The notes under the pieces: generated by a model | Database searches by the model: none | What the model was told of the DNA's origin: nothing | What the model saw: the letters and a program-made list of their open reading frames with translations, nothing else | Shown: positions 12,179 to 61,362 of the stretch, piece by piece | Layout: each line of letters starts with the position of its first letter | Numbering within the stretch: the stretch's first letter is position 1 | Sequence record: SRR31156797_661 | Strand: one strand, 5' to 3' | DNA length: 64,000 nucleotides | Program-made: the position numbers and the translations under genes

Positions 12179-12940
12179 ATGGATCTGGGTACAGTAATAG
12201 GAATAGTTCTTTCTTTCGGACTTGTGCTTTCGGCTATTCTGGTCGGAAGTCCTCTGGGTATTTTTATTTCCGTTCCCTCTGTGCTGATCGTTATCGGCGG
12301 GACCATCGGGGCCTCGCTGGTCAACTATCCCATGGGTCATGTGCTAGGCGTTGTTGGGGTTATTAAGAAGACTTTTTTTTCCAGTCTTGAATCCCCTGGT
12401 GAGATCATCGATAAGTTCATGGATTTTGCCAACCGCGCCCGCCGTGAAGGCATCCTTTCCCTTGAACCTGCCTTGAAATCCATTGAAGACGACTTTTTGC
12501 GTAAAGGGCTGCAACTTACTGTTGACGGCCTTGAGCCGCAGGTTATTCAGGAAATTCTGGAAACAGAAATCCAGTACCTTGAGAATAGACATGAAACCGG
12601 GGCTGAGATCCTGAAGATTTTTGCCGACTTTGCTCCGGCTATGGGTATGATCGGTACAGTTATCGGGCTGGTACAGATGCTCCAGACCATGAGTGATCCC
12701 AGTACAATCGGTCCGGCAATGGCGGTTGCGCTGTTGACCACTCTTTATGGTGCGATTCTGGCCAACCTTGTTTTCACACCTATGTCAGGAAAGCTCAAAA
12801 CCCGCAGCAAGGAGGAAATCCTGCTCCGGGAGATGGTCATGGAAGGCATTATTTCAATTTCCAAAGGTGAGAACCCCAAGATCATTGAGGAAAAGTTGAA
12901 TAGCTTCCTGCCTCCGAAAATCAGAAAGATTACTGATTAG
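12179..12940 (+). CDS. motA: Flagellar stator A subunit (MotA/PomA type)
   Basis: ARREGILSLE rotor-contact motif, PAMGMIGT, ALLTTLYG. Confidence 0.93.
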   Translation: MDLGTVIGIVLSFGLVLSAILVGSPLGIFISVPSVLIVIGGTIGASLVNYPMGHVLGVVGVIKKTFFSSLESPGEIIDKFMDFANRARREGILSLEPALKSIEDDFLRKGLQLTVDGLEPQVIQEILETEIQYLENRHETGAEILKIFADFAPAMGMIGTVIGLVQMLQTMSDPSTIGPAMAVALLTTLYGAILANLVFTPMSGKLKTRSKEEILLREMVMEGIISISKGENPKIIEEKLNSFLPPKIRKITD

Positions 12941-12998
12941 CGGGGCATAGTTTTATTGTGTACTGGGCCGGTTCAGCAAATGTTTGAACGGGGGATTG

Positions 12999-13829
12999 AT
13001 GGGTAGGAAGAAAAAGCCGCAAGAGCCTGAAGGTCAGCCTTTATGGCTGATTACCTTCAGTGACCTGATGACCCTGATGCTCACTTTTTTTGTATTGCTG
13101 GTGAGTATGTCGGTTGTTGACGAGCGTCGTAAGATGGTTGTTCTCGGCTCCATTATCGGTACGTTCGGGTTCGGATCCAAGGGATTCGATGTTCTTTCCG
13201 ATACCCAGTCCCGCAAAACCGTTCAGGTCGGCCCCATGGAGCTACAGGAAGACCTTGAGCCCATTAAACCGTTGCTTTGGGAATTTGCGGAAGAAGATTT
13301 GCGTTTTGAATCCAATCGCTTCGTGCAGATTCTTTCTATTGGAGCTGATGTTTTATTCACACCGGACAGCACTAATATCTCCCTCGAAGGTACACGCATC
13401 CTCGATACCGTTCTTCCGGTTCTGAAAAGAGTCAAGCACCCTGTACTGGTTGCCGGGCATACCTCAATCCTGCGCGATGAGCTGGGCGAGGATTACCGGG
13501 TGGAAGATCGGGATCTTACCCCGGATATTTCATGGAAGATTTCTCTGAACAGATCCCTTGCTGTTTATAATTATCTGATCCGCAATGGCATGAATTCAGA
13601 GATGCTTAAGATTGAGGCTTTTGGAAAATTTCGGCCCCGGCATCCTAACTCCACTCCTGAAGGTCGCAAGATGAACCGCAGAGTGGACCTTGTTCTTGAT
13701 ACACGTAGCGCTGCTGTTTCCAAGGAGATCAGGGAGTATCAGCCTCCGCGTAAGGAAGATGACAAATTCAAGTTTGATGATTTTGTCTTCCCCATCGGTG
13801 ATGCCGAAAAACCGCCTAAGGGCCAGTGA
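12999..13829 (+). CDS. motB: Stator B subunit (MotB/OmpA-like), copy 1
   Basis: WLITFSDLMTL TM segment with conserved Asp; OmpA-like domain ending NRRV. Confidence 0.88.
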   Translation: MGRKKKPQEPEGQPLWLITFSDLMTLMLTFFVLLVSMSVVDERRKMVVLGSIIGTFGFGSKGFDVLSDTQSRKTVQVGPMELQEDLEPIKPLLWEFAEEDLRFESNRFVQILSIGADVLFTPDSTNISLEGTRILDTVLPVLKRVKHPVLVAGHTSILRDELGEDYRVEDRDLTPDISWKISLNRSLAVYNYLIRNGMNSEMLKIEAFGKFRPRHPNSTPEGRKMNRRVDLVLDTRSAAVSKEIREYQPPRKEDDKFKFDDFVFPIGDAEKPPKGQ

Positions 13830-13838
13830 GGGTGATCC

Positions 13839-14567
13839 ATGGGCCGCGATAAAGTAAAAAAGCCGCCGGATCCGGGTGGGGGATGGCTGGTCACATTCTC
13901 TGATTTGGTTACCCTGCTTTTGACTTTTTTTGTGCTCTTGCTAAGTATGGCTTCAATGGACCAGAGTTTTATCACTCGGGTTACTATTATGCCTGCGGAA
14001 CTCGGTTTCCTTGATAAGCGTGGTTCCGGGCGCGTAACAGCCAAGATAAAGCTGGTCAGTGAATTTCTGGAGCGGCCTTGGGAAGTGCTTGAAAAACAGA
14101 ACCGGATCAAGGATCTGCTTTTTCCGGACGATGTTTTGCCGCCGGATATGGACCGGGCTACACTTGAAGAAAACCTGAAGGTTCTTGCCAAGCCTGAAGG
14201 GGTGGCTCTGGTGCTTACAGATAAGCTCATGTTTCCCCTTGGGAAGTCTGAACTTGACGAGAGGGCAAAAAGATTGCTTTACCAATTGGTTCCGGTGCTT
14301 GATTATCTTGGCTCAGCTGATGTGAATATTGCCGGGTATACGGATGATGTGGGTGGTATGAGGTCATCCAACTTTCAGTTATCCGGAGAGCGGGCCATGG
14401 CCGTGCTTACATATTTTGTGGAGCAGGGCATTATGAATGATCGTTTGACAGTATCCGCTTGCGGTCCGACTTTTCCGTTGTACAGTAACACAACACCGGA
14501 AGGGCGCGCACAGAATAGGCGGGTTGAAATTTTGATAAAGACGACTCCCCCTATGGGGGGCTATTAG
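13839..14567 (+). CDS. motB: Stator B subunit (MotB/OmpA-like), copy 2
   Basis: WLVTFSDLVTL; GYTDD, LSGERA, NRRVE. Confidence 0.88.
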   Translation: MGRDKVKKPPDPGGGWLVTFSDLVTLLLTFFVLLLSMASMDQSFITRVTIMPAELGFLDKRGSGRVTAKIKLVSEFLERPWEVLEKQNRIKDLLFPDDVLPPDMDRATLEENLKVLAKPEGVALVLTDKLMFPLGKSELDERAKRLLYQLVPVLDYLGSADVNIAGYTDDVGGMRSSNFQLSGERAMAVLTYFVEQGIMNDRLTVSACGPTFPLYSNTTPEGRAQNRRVEILIKTTPPMGGY

Positions 14568-14596
14568 CTCAGTACAAATACTTAAGAGGGTGAATC

Positions 14597-15097
14597 ATGG
14601 CTGATGAAGGTCAGGAACCGAAAAAGAAAGGCGGAATGCTGAAGTGGATAATTCTTATCCTGCTTCTTGCTATACTTGGTGGCGGTGGTTTTTTCGCCTA
14701 CAAGAAATTTTTTGCCGCCCAGCCTGAAGATGCTGTGGAAGAACCTAAGGAAGATCAGGCCGCTGAGGGTGAAGATCCTGGGACACTTCCCGGTGACGGT
14801 TTTACCGTTACCCTGCCTACTTTTGTAGTCAACCTTGCTGACCCGCTCGGCCGCAGGTATTTAAAACTTGGAATTGATGTTGAGGTTGTCAGCGAAGAGG
14901 CTGTGGCTGAGCTTTCCAAGAAAGAACCTATGGTTAAGGATACGCTTATCCTGCTTCTTTCCAGCAAGACTTATCAGGATCTTTCCACTATGGAGAGTAA
15001 GATTCTCCTGAAAAAGGAAATTGTGGACCGGCTGAACCAGATTTTGGGCGGCTCTAAGGTTTTACAGGTATATTTTACGGATATGGTTATCCAGTAG
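14597..15097 (+). CDS. fliL: Flagellar basal body-associated protein FliL
   Basis: N-terminal TM, FVVNLAD...RYLK, VYFTDMVIQ. Confidence 0.93.
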   Translation: MADEGQEPKKKGGMLKWIILILLLAILGGGGFFAYKKFFAAQPEDAVEEPKEDQAAEGEDPGTLPGDGFTVTLPTFVVNLADPLGRRYLKLGIDVEVVSEEAVAELSKKEPMVKDTLILLLSSKTYQDLSTMESKILLKKEIVDRLNQILGGSKVLQVYFTDMVIQ

Positions 15098-15192
15098 CAC
15101 GGTTTTTGCTTAACCCATTGATGGTGTGTCGATTTTATGTCGTCAGGACTGTTTTTACGGATGGCCAATGAATAATCCGGAGGTAGGCTGCA

Positions 15193-15885
15193 ATGATGTC
15201 AGATGATCTTGATCAGGATAAACTAGCGCAGGAGTGGGCGGACGCACTCACTGACGATTCCGCAGGTGGTGACCCTCTGGGTGGTGATCCTGGTGACGGC
15301 AATGATGAGGCTTTGGCCGACGAATGGGCTGCTGCTCTGTCGGAGCAGGATGATAGCGGAGCCACTGATGAGGACGCCCTTGCCAATGAATGGGCGGCAG
15401 CACTTGGCGAGCAGGGTGATGAAGGTGGCGGCGAAATGGATCTCGGCGGCGGTGGCGGAGGTGGTGACGATGCCCTTGCTGATGAGTGGGCGGCTGCACT
15501 GGCTGAAGATACCGGCGATGATATTCGTAAGGAAAAGGAGCAGGAATTCCTGCGTACTCAGACCCGTGATGCTGACTTTAAAGACCTGACCAATGAGGCC
15601 AAGAACCCGCGCCATGATGGTTCAAGACGTGACCTTGATTTTATTCTCGATATTCCGCTGGATGTTTCCGCTGAACTTGGCCGGGCTAAGATGCTCATCA
15701 ATGAACTTTTACAATTGGGAACCGGATCGGTTGTGGAATTAACCAAGCTGGCCGGGGAACCACTCGAAATTTATGTTAACGGCAAACTAGTCGCTCGTGG
15801 AGAAGCTGTTGTTATTAATGAAAAATTCGGTATAAGGCTGACTGATATCATTAGCCCCATTGAAAGGGTTAAGCACCTTGCCTAA
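15193..15885 (+). CDS. fliN: Flagellar motor switch protein FliN with repetitive acidic N-terminus
   Basis: C-terminal SpoA domain LDFILDIPL...GEAVVINEKFGIR; four LAxEWAxAL repeats. Confidence 0.93.
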   Translation: MMSDDLDQDKLAQEWADALTDDSAGGDPLGGDPGDGNDEALADEWAAALSEQDDSGATDEDALANEWAAALGEQGDEGGGEMDLGGGGGGGDDALADEWAAALAEDTGDDIRKEKEQEFLRTQTRDADFKDLTNEAKNPRHDGSRRDLDFILDIPLDVSAELGRAKMLINELLQLGTGSVVELTKLAGEPLEIYVNGKLVARGEAVVINEKFGIRLTDIISPIERVKHLA

Positions 15886-16243
15886 TGCAACTGCAACTAC
15901 ACTCATGGCGCCAGAGACCGGGCTTGATTCTGTGCTTAAGATGTCGGCAGCGCTTTTTCTTATTCTGGCAATGCTGCTTCTGGCTTATTATTTTATGCGT
16001 CGCTTGAATATCGGGGGTTCTTTTCCCGGTACCAGAAAAGGCGCACTGGAGATTGTGGACCGGCTTCCGCTGGGCCCGCGCCAGAATATTACTGTGGTCA
16101 GGTATCGCGACCGTGAAATGGTGGTCGGTGTTACTCAGGAAAATATTACTCTGCTCCATGCAAGGGATGAAGGGCATGCAAAGATTGATTCTGATTTTGC
16201 CGGATATCTTGAAAAAGAAAGTTCCGGCTCTTCTGACTCTTAG
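15878..16243 (+). CDS. fliO: Flagellar biosynthesis protein FliO
   Basis: One TM then LPLGPRQNITVV...VVGVT; lies between fliN and fliP; start uncertain (TTG 15878 or ATG 15905). Confidence 0.85.
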   Translation: MPNATATTLMAPETGLDSVLKMSAALFLILAMLLLAYYFMRRLNIGGSFPGTRKGALEIVDRLPLGPRQNITVVRYRDREMVVGVTQENITLLHARDEGHAKIDSDFAGYLEKESSGSSDS

Positions 16244-16967
16244 CGCTATTTTTCTGCTGCTGATTCCGGCAGCGGTTTATGCCCAGGAGACAGTACCCAC
16301 CCTTACGCTCAATCTTGCGGCCGGACAGGAAGAGCCAGAGCAGGTTGCCAAACTTCTGGAAATCCTGTTCCTGCTGACTATTCTGGGTATGGCTCCGTCC
16401 ATTTTGCTGACCATGACTTCCTTTACCCGGATCATCATTGTTTTTCATTTCCTGCGTCAGGCCATGGGAACGCAGCAGATGCCTCCCAACCAGATTTTGG
16501 CTTCCCTCGCTATTTTCATGACCGTTGTCATTATGATGCCTACCGGGAAGGCTGTTAACGATGCAGCCTTGCAGCCTTATCTTAATGAGGAAATTGGTTT
16601 TAAAGAGGCCATAGACCGGGCGCAGGTTCCCATCAGGACTTTTTTATTCAAGCATACCCGAGAGAAAGACCTTTCCATTTTTTATTCCATCACCGGTGAA
16701 AAGCGGCCTGAAACCAAAGAGGACGTCAATACTATGCTCCTCGTTGCCGCTTATACCATCAGTGAGTTGAAGACCGGATTTACCATTGGCTTTTTGATCT
16801 ATGTGCCGTTTTTGATTCTTGATATGGTTATCGCCAGTATTCTGCTGGCTATGGGTATGATGATGCTGCCCCCGGCAATGGTTTCGTTGCCGTTTAAAAT
16901 TTTACTGTTCATCATGGTTGACGGGTGGTCGCTTTTGACGGGTTCAATCGTCAACACGTTCCAGTGA
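16176..16967 (+). CDS. fliP: Flagellar export gate protein FliP
   Basis: TSFTRIIIV, QQMPPNQ, GMMMLPP, DGW motifs. Confidence 0.96.
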   Translation: MQRLILILPDILKKKVPALLTLSAIFLLLIPAAVYAQETVPTLTLNLAAGQEEPEQVAKLLEILFLLTILGMAPSILLTMTSFTRIIIVFHFLRQAMGTQQMPPNQILASLAIFMTVVIMMPTGKAVNDAALQPYLNEEIGFKEAIDRAQVPIRTFLFKHTREKDLSIFYSITGEKRPETKEDVNTMLLVAAYTISELKTGFTIGFLIYVPFLILDMVIASILLAMGMMMLPPAMVSLPFKILLFIMVDGWSLLTGSIVNTFQ

Positions 16968-55934: not shown

Positions 55935-57320
55935 TTAAAGCAGCGGGGCGACTAACCTTGCCGCACCTTCCACGGTATCGCGGACCATTCCAACAGGAAC
56001 AGTTCCCTCGGTGCTGACGTCGATAAGTCCCTGAACCCAGTCGTTTACTGGCTTAACATCAGCTTCAGAATAGGAGAACATAACTATTTCATAGTTGAGG
56101 AACAGGCTGCGCATATCCATGTTTGCTGAGCCCACAACTGCCAGTCGATCATCAACTACAATGACTTTGGCATGGACCATGTGCGGATATTTAACCACCC
56201 GACCTCCGCATTGCTCCAGATCACGCAGGTGCGTACCCCGGGCAAGGTCAGCCAGTTTGTGGTTTGATTTTGCCGGAACAACTACCCGCAGGTCTACTCC
56301 GCGCAGGGCTGCCAGACGCAGGGCCTGTGCAAGGGCTTCGTCGGGTACGTAGTAGGGAGTAACGATCCAGAGTCGTTTTTCAGCAGTGAAAGCTGCGGTG
56401 AGCAGGGCGTCGTGTACCGGGTCACGCGGTACGTCAGGTCCTGATGGAACGACCTGCATGACTCCGTCTCCGCTGACAGCAGAACCTTTGGTGCAGGGAG
56501 GAATGATGTTTACTTTTTCTCCGTGTGCAAAGAGCCAGTCTGATTGAAATACTTCAATGTAGTGGCGTACAGCCGGACCCTGCAGCACAAAGGAAAGGTC
56601 GGTCCAACGATCTTCGCATGGCTTGGGGCCGATGTATTCATTGGCGATGTTGGTTCCTCCTGCCAGCACAATCTTCTGGTCGGCAATGGCTATCTTGCGA
56701 TGGTTGCGCAGGTTGCTGTTGCCGTGGAAGGGGGCACGGAAAAGAGGCATGAAATAGGCAACCTTGCCCCCGTTATCGATAAGTTTTCTCAGGAAGCGAC
56801 GGGAAGTGAACAGGGAACCTATATCATCCAGCAGCAGCCTCACGGTAACTCCTGAAGCGGCCTTGCGGGCCAGCCTTTCCACAATGTCTTTACCCACTTC
56901 GTCCCGTGAGAGAATGAAGGTGGTTATCAGGATTTGGTGCTCAGCGTTTTCAATAAGCTTGACCAGTTCCGTGTAGATGTCGATGCCTGTTGGGCAGAGC
57001 CGGACCTTGTTGCCGCTGGTTGCACCGGGAATACCGTATTCACGCAGCATGGCGTCAATGGGGTCGGCATCTTCAGCGGGAACGGTTTCCTGCACTTCAA
57101 GATGGATATCCTCTTTGGTGTGGGCATCCCGTTTGAGTTTACGGCCTCCGAAAATGAGATAAAAGGGGACGCCGACGTATGGTACAAAGAAAATTGCCAG
57201 CAGCCACGCAAAGGCTGCCGAAGATGTGCGTTGCTTGCGCAGGATGGACATAACCAGAATTGCAGCCAGCAAAAAACCGCCTACAACCGCGAGGTGTCCA
57301 AATAAGAGATTCCATTCCAT
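55935..57320 (-). CDS. cls: Cardiolipin synthase (PLD family)
   Basis: Two N-terminal TMs; HRKIAIAD and HAKVIVVD HKD motifs; SGPD, TPYYVP, GSANMD.RS. Confidence 0.9.
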   Translation of the reverse strand: MEWNLLFGHLAVVGGFLLAAILVMSILRKQRTSSAAFAWLLAIFFVPYVGVPFYLIFGGRKLKRDAHTKEDIHLEVQETVPAEDADPIDAMLREYGIPGATSGNKVRLCPTGIDIYTELVKLIENAEHQILITTFILSRDEVGKDIVERLARKAASGVTVRLLLDDIGSLFTSRRFLRKLIDNGGKVAYFMPLFRAPFHGNSNLRNHRKIAIADQKIVLAGGTNIANEYIGPKPCEDRWTDLSFVLQGPAVRHYIEVFQSDWLFAHGEKVNIIPPCTKGSAVSGDGVMQVVPSGPDVPRDPVHDALLTAAFTAEKRLWIVTPYYVPDEALAQALRLAALRGVDLRVVVPAKSNHKLADLARGTHLRDLEQCGGRVVKYPHMVHAKVIVVDDRLAVVGSANMDMRSLFLNYEIVMFSYSEADVKPVNDWVQGLIDVSTEGTVPVGMVRDTVEGAARLVAPLL

Positions 57321-57672
57321 GTCAGTTCCTGAATAGGGTTTAATCATTTATTACCGGACCTTGTTCAGCCCTGTAGACAGCTTAGCAGTATTTTAATTGT
57401 AAGGTAAACAATTAAACGGAGCCGGAAAAAGAGTAGTTTTCTGAAGTGCAAATGTTTATGTCATTAATGCTTTCTTTTTGGTATCCTTAGGGATAAATCC
57501 TTGGTGTATTGTCCTTTATAATGATCTAATATATGATAAATAGTGTTGTTGCTGATTTTTATTGCCGCAAAGGAAGCTGAATTTCCGATGGTTTCACGCG
57601 TCAGTTTCAGAGTTGTTGTTTGATAGTTTTTATTTCTCGCCCGGGAATGGGTAATATTGAGGGAGTTTCTTA

Positions 57673-58839
57673 ATGGGGTCCAGCAGTCCTAATATCAAGT
57701 CCTTTTACAAAGGGCAGGAAATTTTCAAGGAAGGACAGGAGAGTTCAGTCGCCTATATGATCAAAAAAGGCGCAGTGAACATCTACAAGGTCCAGAATAA
57801 TGAAAAAATCATCCTTGCCCGTCTAGGGGAAGGCGAGATCTTCGGTGAAATGGGCATTATCTCCAAGGGAGCCCGTTCAGCAAATGCCGAAGCCGCTGAG
57901 TACTGTGACCTTGTCATTCTTACCGATCAGATCATTCTAAAGCTTCTGGACCAGTGTCCGCGTACGGTCCAATATATGACCCGGCTACTGGTCAAGCGGC
58001 TGCATCGAACCGGTGAAATGATTTCAGCTAAGGGACACCGCAGCAATTTTACAAGCATCTGCAATATCCTTGATCTTGCCTACCGAACCCATATCAGCAT
58101 GGATCGAGAGCAGGCCCGCAAAGAACGCAATCATGATCTCGGCCTTGATTACAATAAGCTCTGCAAAACAATCCGCAGTATTATTCTCGTTTCTCAGAGT
58201 GAGATAGACGCAGTGATCAGCAAGCTCAAAAGCTTGAAGATTATCGACGCCATTGATTTACGAACCGGAAAAGCCTTTCCTGATCGCTTTATCCAGATTT
58301 CCGATCCTGATAATTTTCTTGAAGTTGCCAACAACCTGTTCAAGGAGCTACAGCAGACCGCCTACACTCCCACATCTGACCTGCAGATTGTGGATATCTA
58401 CGAAATTTCTGAAATGCTGGAGAGTGATCCCAAGATCATCTACAAAAAAATCGCACAGGAAGATTTTCCGGAAACCATGTTCATGTTTGACCGTAACAAG
58501 GTTAGTGACTGGGCATCTGAAAAAGAGCCGGACTACTTCAGCAAGGTTAAGAAAAAGAAGAAATCCATTGAAGAGTTGGAGGACATCGAAGACATCGTCT
58601 ACGTGGACAATGCTACTCTCAAGGAAGTATTCACCCGTTTGGGTTACCATAAACTGGGCGTGCTGATGAGCATTGCAGAGGATGATGCCCGCAAGAAGAT
58701 TCTGGCCAACCTTGCCAAGAAGATTGCCAAGATCGTGCAGGATGAAGTCCGTGATAATGTGGATGAGACTGAGGCTGAAGACGTGCTCACCGAGCTTTTT
58801 GAGATGGTCCGGGAAATCAAAGGAGGGGATAAGAAGTGA
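57673..58839 (+). CDS. cNMP-binding domain protein with putative HTH modules and a C-terminal FliG_C-like domain
   Basis: IFKEG...FGEMG...RSANA cNMP cassette; C-terminus IEDIVYVDN...RKKILANLAKKIAKIVQDEV...VREI aligns by eye with the FliG C-domain; GAGGGAG RBS. Confidence 0.8.
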   Translation: MGSSSPNIKSFYKGQEIFKEGQESSVAYMIKKGAVNIYKVQNNEKIILARLGEGEIFGEMGIISKGARSANAEAAEYCDLVILTDQIILKLLDQCPRTVQYMTRLLVKRLHRTGEMISAKGHRSNFTSICNILDLAYRTHISMDREQARKERNHDLGLDYNKLCKTIRSIILVSQSEIDAVISKLKSLKIIDAIDLRTGKAFPDRFIQISDPDNFLEVANNLFKELQQTAYTPTSDLQIVDIYEISEMLESDPKIIYKKIAQEDFPETMFMFDRNKVSDWASEKEPDYFSKVKKKKKSIEELEDIEDIVYVDNATLKEVFTRLGYHKLGVLMSIAEDDARKKILANLAKKIAKIVQDEVRDNVDETEAEDVLTELFEMVREIKGGDKK

Positions 58840-59612
58840 ATATAGCCACCATAATCGGTATATTCTTCGGTATTGCCATCCTCATGGTTGCTACCTACAC
58901 TTCCACTGATTCCGTGGGTGTATTTATCAATATTCCCGGTATTGCAATTGTAGGTGGGGGAACCATTGCTTCCACCTTTATCTGTTATCCGTTGCGCGAA
59001 GTAATGCGCGTGCTCGGTGTATTCATGATGGCCATGGGGGCTGACGAACTGCCTCTTGAAAACTACATCAACGTTATTGTCGGACTTTCCAAGGATGTTT
59101 CTTCCAAAGGGGAGGAGCACCTTGAGGGTAGTCTCAAAAATATCGAGAACGATTTTCTGCGTGAAGGATTGCAGATGCTTGTGGACGGTTATTCCAAGGA
59201 AGAGATCAAGGAGATTCTTGATAACCGCATCCAGCAGTATCACGAACAGGAATACAGTGCCGCCGGGATTTACCGGACCATGTCCACCCTTTCTCCGGCC
59301 TTCGGTATTATCGGGACCCTGATTGGTCTTATTGCCATGATGCAGGGTATGGGCGCAGATATTGCCGCCATCGGTCCGGCTATGGCAACAGCCTTGACTA
59401 CCACTCTCTACGGTGCGCTTTTTGCCAACATGCTTTTCATGCCTATTGCCATTAAGGTTGAGAAACGAATTGACGAGATTACCCTGCTCATGCGGGTTAT
59501 CCGTGACGGTATTCTGTTCATCAAGGACAAGACCCCGTCTGCCATCGTCATGGATAAGCTCAAGGGTTACCTGCCCCCGCGTAAGTGGGCTACAGTTAAA
59601 GCGAAGAAGTAG
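58836..59612 (+). CDS. motA: Second stator A subunit (MotA/PomA-like)
   Basis: FLREGLQMLVDG, PAFGIIGTLIGL, ALTTTLYG; GTG start overlaps the upstream TGA (GTGA). Confidence 0.9.
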   Translation: MNIATIIGIFFGIAILMVATYTSTDSVGVFINIPGIAIVGGGTIASTFICYPLREVMRVLGVFMMAMGADELPLENYINVIVGLSKDVSSKGEEHLEGSLKNIENDFLREGLQMLVDGYSKEEIKEILDNRIQQYHEQEYSAAGIYRTMSTLSPAFGIIGTLIGLIAMMQGMGADIAAIGPAMATALTTTLYGALFANMLFMPIAIKVEKRIDEITLLMRVIRDGILFIKDKTPSAIVMDKLKGYLPPRKWATVKAKK

Positions 59613-59624
59613 GCAGAGTGCATT

Positions 59625-60350
59625 ATGTCGGATGATTTCAGTCTGAAAAAGCCTGCACAGGGCGGAGAGGAGGGCGGCTGGGCCCTGACTTTGGCAGATA
59701 TGATGACTCTGCTGCTCTGCTTTTTTGTGCTTTTGCTGGCCATCGCCGATGTTGACCAGAACAAATATAAAGATGTTTCCGATTCACTGGCCTCGGCTAT
59801 GGGGGTGCCTGTGCCGCCTAAAGGTGAGGCAGACACCTTTGAAGGTGCTCCGGTTGCCCGCAGGGTGATCAGTGATGAGCAACGCAATATTTTTGAAATG
59901 CAGCTGGAGATGGCCCGGCTGGTAGGTCGTGAATCTGATGCTTTGAAGATCAAGATGCGCCCTGATTCCGTAGCCATAGTGCTTAAGGGCGGTTTCTTTT
60001 TTCCCAGCGGCAAGGCTGACCTGACCCGTGGAGCCAAGAGGGTTCTGGCCAAGATCGCACCCACTCTTGCCAAGTCTCCATATGACGTGGTTGTCGAAGG
60101 CCATTCCGACAATATCCCCATGAGATCAAAACAGTTCCCGTCTAACTGGGAGCTTTCTTCAGCCCGGGCCAGTGCCGTTGCCCGCTACCTGCTCAATAAT
60201 GGATTCAGCAAGGATCGCATTAAAGTGCTGGGTATGGCTGATACAGTACCTGCCTATCCCAACGTAGATGAAAACGGCAAAGCCATTCCCGCTAACCAGA
60301 AGCGCAACCGCAGGGTTGTCTTGTTAGTTTATCCGCCTAAGAAGAATTAA
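59625..60350 (+). CDS. motB: Stator B subunit (MotB/PomB-like) with OmpA-like peptidoglycan-binding domain
   Basis: WALTLADMMTLLLCFFVLL; EGHSD, NWELSSARA, NRRV. Confidence 0.9.
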   Translation: MSDDFSLKKPAQGGEEGGWALTLADMMTLLLCFFVLLLAIADVDQNKYKDVSDSLASAMGVPVPPKGEADTFEGAPVARRVISDEQRNIFEMQLEMARLVGRESDALKIKMRPDSVAIVLKGGFFFPSGKADLTRGAKRVLAKIAPTLAKSPYDVVVEGHSDNIPMRSKQFPSNWELSSARASAVARYLLNNGFSKDRIKVLGMADTVPAYPNVDENGKAIPANQKRNRRVVLLVYPPKKN

Positions 60351-60351
60351 A

Positions 60352-60390
60352 AAAGAAAAAGGGGATCGGTTATCGATCCCCTTTTTCTTT
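60352..60390. terminator. Bidirectional intrinsic terminator
   Basis: aaagaaaaaggggatcg...cgatcccctttttcttt. Confidence 0.88.
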
Positions 60391-61362
60391 TTATTCTTTC
60401 TCAACAACTTCCCGTATCTGATACGTCTTTGTTCCCATGACCGCGTCATAGGTGTTGGCTAACGATTCAAGGATGAATCCTGTGGACATGAAGCCCAGTG
60501 AGCTCAGGTAGAGCAGGATGCAGCCCATGAATGGCGGACGGGTGCCCATGTGGACTCCGAAGAAAACTTTTTCATAAAGCAGCCAGATCATGACCAGCGA
60601 GGCAAGCATGAACATGAGCAGGCTGATGCGTCCGAAAAGATAGATGGGGCGTTGCTTGAATGAGGACTGGAACCAGAGCATGACGATGTCGAAAAGAACG
60701 TCAATGGACCGGGACAGACCATAGTGGCTTTCCCCGGCAAAGCGCGGGGGGGCGGAAATGGGTACCTCGGAAGTGGAACCGCCCATGCCGTAAACCAGCG
60801 CAGGGATGAGTCTGTGCTGTCCTTCTCGCAGGGTCATGGAGCGGGCCAGCTTGCCTTTGAGTACGGAAAGTCCGCCCATATCTTTTACCTGACAGCCGCT
60901 GGTTGCGCGCATGAGGTAGTTGGCGATCTTGCTGGGTAGCTTACGCTTGATCATGGATTCGCCGCGATTGGTGCGGCACCCGGAAACAAGGTCGTAACCT
61001 TTGCGGATTTCTTCAATTAGGGACGGTACTTCTTCAGGCTTATGCTGGAGGTCTCCGTCCATGATAACAACATAGCATCCCTGACTTTCCTGAATGCCGG
61101 CGTAGATTGCAGTGCATTGTCCACGATTGCGCGCCAGCATGACTCCTTTGAGATTAGGGTCATCATCAGCAAGTTCACGAATAATGGATTCGGTGCTGTC
61201 GGTGGAACCGTCATTGACCAGCAGGATCTCATAGGTGGTGTTCATTCCCTGCAGGGCAGCAGTAATGCGTTTGTGGAATTCACGTACACAGCCTTCTTCA
61301 TTGTGCATGGGAGTGACAATACTGACTTCTATCTCTCTTTTACATTCTTCAGTTTCTATCAT
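60391..61362 (-). CDS. GT2 polyprenol-phosphate glycosyltransferase (ArnC/GtrB-like)
   Basis: P.HNEE, NDGSTD, RNRGQ, DGDLQH, RFAGESHY, two C-terminal TMs. Confidence 0.88.
   Translation of the reverse strand: MIETEECKREIEVSIVTPMHNEEGCVREFHKRITAALQGMNTTYEILLVNDGSTDSTESIIRELADDDPNLKGVMLARNRGQCTAIYAGIQESQGCYVVIMDGDLQHKPEEVPSLIEEIRKGYDLVSGCRTNRGESMIKRKLPSKIANYLMRATSGCQVKDMGGLSVLKGKLARSMTLREGQHRLIPALVYGMGGSTSEVPISAPPRFAGESHYGLSRSIDVLFDIVMLWFQSSFKQRPIYLFGRISLLMFMLASLVMIWLLYEKVFFGVHMGTRPPFMGCILLYLSSLGFMSTGFILESLANTYDAVMGTKTYQIREVVEKE

Follow-up and report, generated by a model that had tools for sequence, protein, structure and literature searches.

The bacterial flagellum draws its force from stator units, whose recruitment is one established way of sensing load and surfaces; the rotor surface on which MotA pushes is the C-terminal domain of FliG (FliG_C). 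To our knowledge, all soluble proteins known to act at the MotA/FliG interface are effectors of cyclic diguanylate (c-di-GMP) of the PilZ type or a biofilm clutch. ExbBD-TonB, TolQR-TolA and the ZorAB pair of Zorya are 5:2 ion-driven motors with dedicated partners. Here we analyse a stretch of 64,000 nucleotides from sequence record SRR31156797_661 (hereafter the window), in which a sulfate-reducing bacterium encodes a cyclic-nucleotide (cNMP) sensor ending in the piece of the rotor that motor units push. This protein, P1, is the product of the first gene of a three-gene operon whose second and third genes encode a stator pair, MotA2 and MotB2.

The stator-rotor contacts of the flagellar motor include the pairs R90/D288-D289 and E98/R281 (PMC12505986), and FliG residues 239-333 fused to MotA bind in up to three copies per MotA5B2 unit, each copy gripped between adjacent MotA cytoplasmic domains, which its torque helix touches through charged residues at either end (PMC11302681). 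P1 shares the FliG_C fold and has a torque helix in which an acidic pair follows a basic residue at a distance of 7-8 positions, and its partner MotA2 is a MotA/PomA homologue with an equivalent of E98. It differs in that (i) its FliG_C is fused to a soluble cNMP receptor, (ii) two of the five classical charges are missing, and (iii) the equivalent of R90 is lost from MotA2. For the c-di-GMP brakes and clutches represented by YcgR and other PilZ proteins, which are soluble receptors of a second messenger, the proposed site of action is the interface of MotA and FliG_C (PMC10140304, PMC12713396). P1 is likewise a soluble second-messenger receptor in those terms, but its messenger is a cNMP and not c-di-GMP, its sensor fold is not PilZ, its output is a copy of the rotor surface, and it is co-translated with a private stator. 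With the Ton, Tol and Zorya motors the common trait is that MotA2B2 is inherited with a specific partner in place of the flagellar rotor; unlike them, MotA2 and MotB2 are of the flagellar type (TolQ/ExbB models score at most 24 bits and ZorA gave no hit), and the partner, P1, is cytoplasmic and uses the flagellar interface.

The N-terminal part of P1 recalls Bd2879, a cNMP-binding putative transcription factor of Bdellovibrio bacteriovorus (PDB 9sfa), for which the published account gives a nucleotide-binding domain (NBD, residues 1-118), two winged helix-turn-helix domains (wHTH1, 125-228; wHTH2, 237-335) and a disordered zinc-finger tail (PMC12750041). The boundaries of P1, at 1-118, 125-230 and 236 onwards, follow the same N-terminal plan; the two proteins part at the end, which is a disordered zinc-finger region in Bd2879 and FliG_C in P1, and their middle regions share no detectable sequence similarity.

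The original prediction, made by a model from the letters of the window and its open reading frames (ORFs), had described a cNMP/HTH/FliG_C fusion co-encoded with its own stator and had known of no characterised system of this architecture. Full-text literature searches, judged by abstracts, likewise turned up neither a cNMP-FliG_C protein nor a stator with a soluble FliG_C partner, and the main text of a survey of MotAB diversity contains neither 'cyclic nucleotide' nor 'Desulfovibrio', though its supplements could list such neighbourhoods (PMC12505986). Below we set out the domain structure of P1, its partnership with MotA2, and the alternatives to the explanation that we tentatively prefer, namely that P1 docks on its own MotA2B2 under cNMP control and that this docking is coupled to a regulatory output.

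The C-terminus of P1 is the torque-helix subdomain of FliG

P1 (388 aa; 57673..58839, + strand; defined by its ORF, Pfam matches, an AlphaFold2 model and 144 homologues) consists of a cNMP-binding domain, two winged helices, a basic linker and a FliG_C subdomain. Residues 301-388 (58573..58836, + strand) form the six-helix C-terminal subdomain of FliG, with the torque helix at aa ~346-360 (K350, D357, E358), an assignment that draws on Pfam, on profile comparison with the Protein Data Bank (PDB) and on fold. Pfam FliG_C (PF01706) matches aa 300-382 with an E-value of 6.6e-7 and 30.0 bits against a cut-off of 23.3, and relatives of P1 score 25-46.5 bits. When a profile of 52 C-terminal sequences was compared with all PDB sequences, 11 FliG matches were retrieved, the strongest at E 2.7e-10, and no other protein fell below E 0.1. 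Similarities of this strength lie well outside what chance would produce. A Foldseek comparison of this region, proposed in the original prediction, places FliG entries throughout ranks 1-16 for the model of the C-terminus. Alignment with VIA-align to 4fhr_B/8wiw gave Z 12.7 and a root-mean-square deviation (rmsd) of 1.6 Å over 85 aa, and in two Foldseek-independent searches FliG was the top non-NBD match, with 1qc7_B at Z 12.3-12.6. A Foldseek-independent search also separated the FliG C-domains (Z 11.1-12.3) from FliG_M (7.3-7.5), FliG_N (6.4-6.6) and MgtE (5.7); over all the fold comparisons these three stay within Z 4-7.6. A feature search of the ESM Atlas returned FliG_C clusters at 0.81-0.83, which we treat as a lead only, and a protein search with aa 296-388, using a word index of limited reach, retrieved the same family and no new architectures.

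The match spans FliG residues ~233-321, that is, the torque-helix subdomain, and leaves ARM_C and the M and N domains outside. P1 is thus not a FliG, and for want of the N and M domains and ARM_C it cannot sit in the C-ring. With the FliG model TIGR00207 it reaches 21 bits where 226.7 would be required, at model positions 236-296 only, in keeping with the absence of N and M domains noticed in the original prediction, and a separate canonical FliG (FliG_C, 146 bits) is present in each of three close relatives (G001-G003) that served for whole-genome comparisons. These findings bear on the idea that the FliG_C domain of P1 has the C-ring as its target, perhaps stacking there on FliG or FliM, in place of a stator. 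FliG domains do pack together in the ring, and there is weak fold similarity to FliG_M and FliG_N (Z 6.4-7.6); but P1 lacks the ring-contact parts ARM_C, M and N, its match begins at FliG ~233-239, and the private stator would go unexplained, so that we regard such a rotor-directed role as most unlikely.

The register of the torque helix is the same by two methods, both of which reproduce the alignment made by eye in the original prediction: HMMER against Thermotoga FliG places K349-K350 on K-R and D357-E358 on D-E, and MAFFT against the canonical FliG of the relatives places K350 on R and D357-E358 on E-D. By position, we take K350, D357 and E358 to be the equivalents of E. coli R281, D288 and D289. 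In an alignment of 87 relatives, the most distant at ~20% identity, 76 have K/R at position 350, and 56 have an acidic residue at position 357 and likewise 56 at position 358. The P1 C-terminus also matches, at Z 11.5, residues 239-323 of 8ucs_H, the chain of the MotA-fused FliG 239-333 construct (PMC11302681); P1 thus carries the piece of FliG sufficient for docking when held near a stator. From these correspondences and the genomic partnership described below we infer that the FliG_C domain of P1 probably docks on MotA2.

P1 is inherited with one clade of MotA

We surveyed 301 genomes, many of them incomplete, from one order around a close relative of the window's organism. Full-length matches to P1 (368-607 bits) occur in 64, and a further 30 have matches to the N-terminal cNMP domain only. 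With a profile of the linked MotAs, 64 matches scored 456-491 bits, and no other match in the sample exceeded 205 bits. The genomes with P1 and those with MotA2 are the same 64; MotA2 lies directly beside P1 in each, and neither is found in the other 237 (0/237), an obligate genomic partnership of P1 with a diverged stator clade. The neighbourhood survey envisaged in the original prediction thus bears out its pairing of the protein with a second stator. Checked by tblastn, the order P1-MotA-MotB holds in 30/30 and 20/20 fetched loci, at 33-98% P1 identity, and the 1-nt coding overlap between P1 and MotA recurs in loci down to 33-38% identity. A species collection scanned with a cNMP-domain peptide pattern gave at least 80 loci, mostly of unrelated cNMP proteins; 12 span to the C-terminal domain, and the order is kept in 9 of these 12 full-length loci among the matches listed. 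Flanks of loci were scanned over clean flanking ORFs only.

Of the 301 genomes, 276 have FliG (TIGR00207), among them every one of the 64 with the P1 module; given this base rate and the many incomplete genomes, the 64/64 says little. The occurrence in non-flagellated genomes that had been entertained in the original prediction did not materialise, since every one of the 64 module genomes carries FliG.

The P1-like cNMP...FliG_C family is wider than this operon, since some of its members have no stator beside them. Forms of ~290-310 aa (L012:6019-6903, from a metagenome-assembled genome of Nitrospirales, and P0148, P0157, P0160 and P0161) match P1 aa 2-300 and stop before FliG_C; these are Bd2879-like cores without the stator-binding module. 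Twelve distant loci (e.g. L009:8843-9652, L123:6831-7652, L126:1422-2288) have a gene for a ~270-aa cytoplasmic tetratricopeptide-repeat (TPR) protein directly 3' of motB, forming a four-gene operon with response-regulator-TPR genes nearby; a hydrophobic N-terminal segment is absent from both translations read, and the operon of the window has no TPR gene. At locus L131 (965-2362, 5255-7744) fliM is convergent to motB, and a response regulator of the GAF-HD-GYP type lies immediately 5' of the P1 homologue.

MotA2 and MotB2 form a stator with an altered rotor-facing loop

MotA2 (258 aa, GTG start; 58836..59612, + strand) was identified from its ORF and from Pfam MotA_ExbB (PF01618, E 1.3e-27). 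Its nearest solved relatives are Vibrio PomA (138 bits, aa 1-250) and Clostridium sporogenes MotA (122 bits), and it is 40% identical to the canonical MotA of the window (MotA1). It falls under the curated NCBIfam cut-offs for PomA (171.5 vs 341), MotP (168.6 vs 394) and MotA (149.4 vs 340). In a gap-free alignment, 'ARREGLLSLE' of C. sporogenes MotA stands opposite 'VSSKGEEHLE' of MotA2, so that the equivalent of E98 is retained as E97, the R90 position is S89, and a lysine, K91, follows two residues on. All 55 distinct sequences of linked MotAs (55/55) retain the Glu and have a non-basic residue at the R90 position, and nearly all have K/R two residues after the R90 position, preceding Gly. 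The loop SSKGEEHLE, which faces the rotor, is specific to the MotA2 clade; MotA1 retains RR...E.

MotB2 (241 aa; 59625..60350, + strand), likewise identified from its ORF and Pfam domains, has MotB_plug (E 5.6e-17) and OmpA (E 3.2e-19); the nearest NCBIfam models are of the MotD/MotS type, which it matches below their cut-offs. Its transmembrane segment carries D25 in 'LTLADMMTLL', presumably, from its position, the ion-binding Asp. As MotB2 retains the plug, this Asp and the peptidoglycan anchor, MotA2B2 looks competent for ion conduction. PilZ and YcgR families are absent from the Pfam hits at E <= 1 for the operon proteins. A Zorya-type defence reading was considered and rejected: PADLOC models gave nothing for MotA2 at E <= 0.01, the protein, at 258 aa, is without a tail, and MotB2 has only generic ZorB/MotB similarity.

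Two alternatives turn on these stator features. According to the first, mimicry of FliG_C by P1 holds an auxiliary stator, MotA2B2 (possibly of the Na+ type), off the C-ring or frees it for the C-ring in response to cAMP or cGMP, making P1 a cyclic-nucleotide counterpart of the c-di-GMP brakes YcgR and its relatives. The structural and co-occurrence evidence given above serves this flagellar clutch or decoy as well as it serves the explanation that we prefer, and FliG is found in all 64 module genomes. Relatives of P1 that lack a linked stator sit beside a methyl-accepting chemotaxis protein (MCP; L015), response regulators (L011, L146) or an RR-GGDEF protein with a histidine kinase (L147, L149), the usual company of motility regulators, and fliM adjoins motB in one locus (L131). 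Known soluble proteins that touch MotA or FliG_C, such as YcgR in the accounts cited above, regulate swimming. On the other side, the absence of the R90 equivalent in 55/55 linked MotAs makes the fit of MotA2 to canonical FliG doubtful; a plain second stator should sometimes occur without P1, which it does in 0/237 genomes; the retention of two well-conserved winged helices is left unexplained; and the base rate of FliG (276/301) takes most of the weight from the 64/64. We rank this alternative, possible but somewhat doubtful when taken alone, just below a regulatory partner switch and nearly as likely.

The second alternative is an autonomous, non-flagellar device, in which MotA2B2 never meets the flagellum, has P1 as its sole partner on the 'rotor side', and ion flow works on P1 (releasing, remodelling or rotating it) or on its cargo, be it DNA held by the winged helices or membrane contacted by the basic linker, with a cytoplasmic TPR protein added in one sub-clade. 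The obligate two-way linkage of P1 and MotA2, the altered rotor-facing loop, the conserved TPR gene directly 3' of motB in 12 loci, and the plug, Asp and peptidoglycan anchor retained by MotB2 are all in its favour. We nonetheless judge it very unlikely: the module occurs in no non-flagellated genome (64 module genomes), a soluble partner taking up torque has no known precedent, and MotA2 has no ZorA-type hit in PADLOC.

P1 has an intact ligand site and a CRP-like core

The full-length AlphaFold2 model of P1, built from 87 relatives, has a mean predicted local-distance score (pLDDT) of 91.0 and a predicted template-modelling score (pTM) of 0.58, the latter leaving the arrangement of the domains uncertain; the C-terminal 153 residues were also folded alone (pLDDT 90.1). 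The model was aligned with VIA-align, with Foldseek not used, to 48,161 PDB representative chains.

Residues 1-118 (57673..58026, + strand) form the cyclic-nucleotide-binding beta-roll and C-helix, identified by Pfam and by structural match to Bd1971. Pfam cNMP_binding (PF00027) covers aa 9-94 at E 1.2e-18, and the cassette G58-E59...R68-S69 pointed out in the original prediction is intact in the translation, its positions invariant or nearly so in 25 relatives. The best structural match is the NBD of Bd1971 (Z 18.4, rmsd 1.4 Å, 111 aa, 41% identity), whose ligand contacts are R67/S68 to phosphate and E58/M59 to ribose (PMC12750041). The matching P1 residues, R68/S69 and E59/M60, are nearly invariant in the P1 family.

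Residues 125-230 (58045..58362, + strand) were assigned with VIA-align as a CRP/Bd2879-like winged helix (wHTH1). The model over residues 7-228 aligns with Bd2879 (9sfa_B) at Z 16.3; chains of CRP, FNR, NtcA and FixK2 align within residues 3-229 at Z 12-15, and profile alignments of P1 to CRP-family chains extend to aa 194-214. No curated CRP/FNR/NtcA equivalog cut-off is reached, the best being NCBIfam CRP at 49.2 bits against 266. Residues 236-295 (58378..58557, + strand), assigned from weak fold matches, comprise a small MerR/excisionase-like winged helix (wHTH2) and the basic linker KVKKKKK. Of 87 relatives, 75 retain K259 of wHTH2, 69 retain E264 and 75 retain P266, placing this domain among the best-kept parts of the P1 family. 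Pfam searches with aa 236-295 alone and with aa 125-236 alone gave nothing meaningful. The cNMP/HTH/FliG_C reading of the original prediction accordingly stands, refined to two winged helices in a Bd2879-like layout.

The only names that databases give to members of the P1 family are 'cyclic nucleotide-binding domain-containing protein' and 'Crp/Fnr family transcriptional regulator', and P1 might be just that: an ordinary, cNMP-dependent CRP-type factor regulating the motA2B2 operon and perhaps others, its FliG_C-like addition serving dimerisation or some other partner and never touching MotA2. The annotation of the family as Crp/Fnr regulators, the CRP-like fold across aa 7-228 and the conserved promoter block described below agree with this, as does the frequency with which regulators adjoin their targets. 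We consider it quite unlikely all the same: the added domain is specifically the torque-helix subdomain, its charges kept across ~20-98% identity; co-inheritance with one MotA clade, translational coupling and a clade-specific change in the MotA loop would be unexpected; and the NCBIfam CRP score of 49 bits stands far from the cut-off of 266.

Genomic setting of the operon

The best protein matches to P1, at 98% identity, are from Maridesulfovibrio. The stop codon of P1 and the start of MotA2 overlap as GTGA (58836-58839), MotA2 being translationally coupled, and 12 nt (59613-59624) separate MotA2 from MotB2. The operon ends at a bidirectional intrinsic-terminator-like hairpin (60350..60392, either strand) of 19-20 pairs (7 G-C), with flanking A/T runs and T runs on both strands. 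The ORFs and this hairpin uphold the three-gene operon of the original prediction, with its overlap, its 12-bp gap and a terminator near 60352. A promoter-like site predicted by consensus scan, TTGTCC-17 nt-TATGAT (57509..57537, + strand), lies within the sole conserved block 5' of P1 (57505-57540); among 22 distinct orthologous regions with diverged flanks, the block is invariant or almost so and comprises TTGTyC-17-TATGAT and part of the spacer, and its invariant spacer positions may mark an operator. Inspection by eye, with no scan, found no convincing sigma-28 or sigma-54 motif 5' of P1. Directly 5' of the P1 ribosome-binding site is a small hairpin (~57639-57655) with compensatory changes between species.

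Upstream and divergent lies a cardiolipin-synthase-like gene (55935-57347, - strand), a neighbour kept only in loci of the Maridesulfovibrio type; it may be coincidental, though the basic linker of P1 could face acidic lipid. The downstream neighbour is a glycosyltransferase-like ORF, so that neither of the two neighbours inspected is a rotor or basal-body gene. The canonical locus, motA-motB-motB-fliL-fliN-fliO-fliP, is at 12179-16967, about 42-45 kb upstream of the operon; both its distance (put at ~43 kb) and the lack of adjacent rotor or basal-body genes had been read correctly in the original prediction. Within it (12179-14567) one motA is followed by two motB (281 aa and 242 aa), each with plug and OmpA domains, and one close relative has six MotA_ExbB-family genes in total. 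Class III nucleotide cyclases were found in 3/3 close relatives of the window's organism; in one of them, G002, two of the three cyclase genes lie ~17-32 kb from its P1 operon.

A proposed partner switch, and the evidence that weighs against it

The domain identities of P1, its likeness to the stator-binding fragment, the kept charges, the intact ligand site and the partnership with a diverged stator clade are the starting point of the explanation that we prefer; from them we infer a dimer, an effect of cNMP, DNA binding and a direction of control. P1 would be a dimeric, CRP-like cyclic-nucleotide receptor and the dedicated partner of MotA2B2. In a MotA5B2-type unit, its FliG_C domain would enter the cytoplasmic cleft formed by two adjoining MotA2 subunits, with the torque helix leading, mirroring FliG_C on the flagellar stator. 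Binding of cAMP or cGMP would reposition the C-helix and the two winged-helix domains, and thereby make the pair of FliG_C domains in the dimer available for docking or not. P1 held by a stator could not act through its winged helices, whose target would probably be DNA and might include the conserved promoter of P1 itself; conversely, P1 bound to a stator would keep that stator from engaging the rotor. Through this mutual exclusion, the module would make a regulatory output depend both on a second messenger and on the state of a single stator species. This partner switch is marginally favoured on account of the conserved winged helices, a co-translation like that of sigma and anti-sigma factors, the conserved promoter block, and the loss from MotA2 of a residue that meets FliG.

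Several observations weigh against it. In the C-terminal domain, two of the five classical charged positions of FliG, numbered in our assignment K264 and R297, have no P1 equivalent: 'MSIAE' and 'DNVD' stand in place of the FliG sequences 'LKGAS' and 'GPVK', as the original prediction had also found in noting that equivalents of K264 and GPVR were lacking. Charge differences between the P1 helix and the MotA2 loop do not covary cleanly across clades; the close clade gives a hint of covariation, more basic helices going with more acidic loops, which fails in the distant clade, and because of that disagreement, and because phylogeny confounds the comparison, we do not use it as evidence. In the middle of the protein, the fold matches of wHTH2 in the 48,161-chain search are weak (Z 3.6-4.8), mostly to excisionases and N-domains of the MerR family, and phmmer found no match of aa 120-300 to any PDB sequence at E <= 10, so that DNA binding, with no sequence match to solved DNA-binding proteins in this region, is uncertain. 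Nor are the winged helices basic, the family mean net charge being +1.0 for wHTH1 and -3.6 for wHTH2. Bd2879 itself is called only a putative transcription factor (PMC12750041). All 64 module genomes are flagellated, which equally fits a purely flagellar role.

The remaining points against a private partnership concern relatives of P1 found apart from a stator. Tandem P1 paralogues, 35-39% identical and with no stator nearby, are held by 19 of the 64 genomes, and distant relatives (23-26% identity, in a 401-genome sample of the phylum) have no MotA2/MotB2-like gene within 1.5 kb, their FliG_C being clear at 39.5 and 46.5 bits. The FliG_C domain thus has no need of a private stator. In the tandem pairs (L010:5989-8299; L084, L088, L089, L092) the second copy has Pfam FliG_C and the first falls below threshold; the pairs sit between genes for a VTT-domain protein and a biotin/lipoate ligase-like protein, far from any MotA gene. 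Among other unlinked relatives, the gene after L011 encodes a response-regulator-TPR protein, and an MCP gene precedes L015. Distant cNMP...FliG_C proteins with no adjoining stator are encoded at L147:1102-2313, L149:1501-2712 and L145:1432-2634; L147 and L149 are flanked by a response-regulator-GGDEF diguanylate cyclase and a histidine kinase, and L146 lies beside a response regulator. The setting of L147 and L149 hints at cross-talk between cNMP and c-di-GMP signalling.

A more radical form of the proposal can be stated, in which MotA2B2 is a free-standing, peptidoglycan-anchored 5:2 ion motor and a soluble cNMP receptor, dimeric and DNA-binding, is all that it has for a 'rotor'. Ion flow, gated by the state of the envelope, would then mechanically release or remodel a transcription factor or exert force on DNA. 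We think this unlikely.

Implications

The P1 module points to a reuse of the flagellar rotor-stator interface within a second-messenger receptor, and so to an undescribed wiring from messenger to motor. If the proposal is true, an input of cAMP or cGMP would be added to those acting at the MotA/FliG interface, by a mechanism of molecular mimicry of the rotor surface, and a stator paralogue would have a soluble partner, in place of the rotor, as the protein with which it co-evolved. A natural, minimal pair of soluble FliG_C and stator could open the torque-generating contact to biochemical and structural work without the C-ring. Should the winged helices bind DNA, an ion-driven membrane motor would be linked directly to transcription, and if MotA2B2 is indeed a free-standing motor, this would be the first reuse of the flagellar torque interface for signalling to the chromosome.

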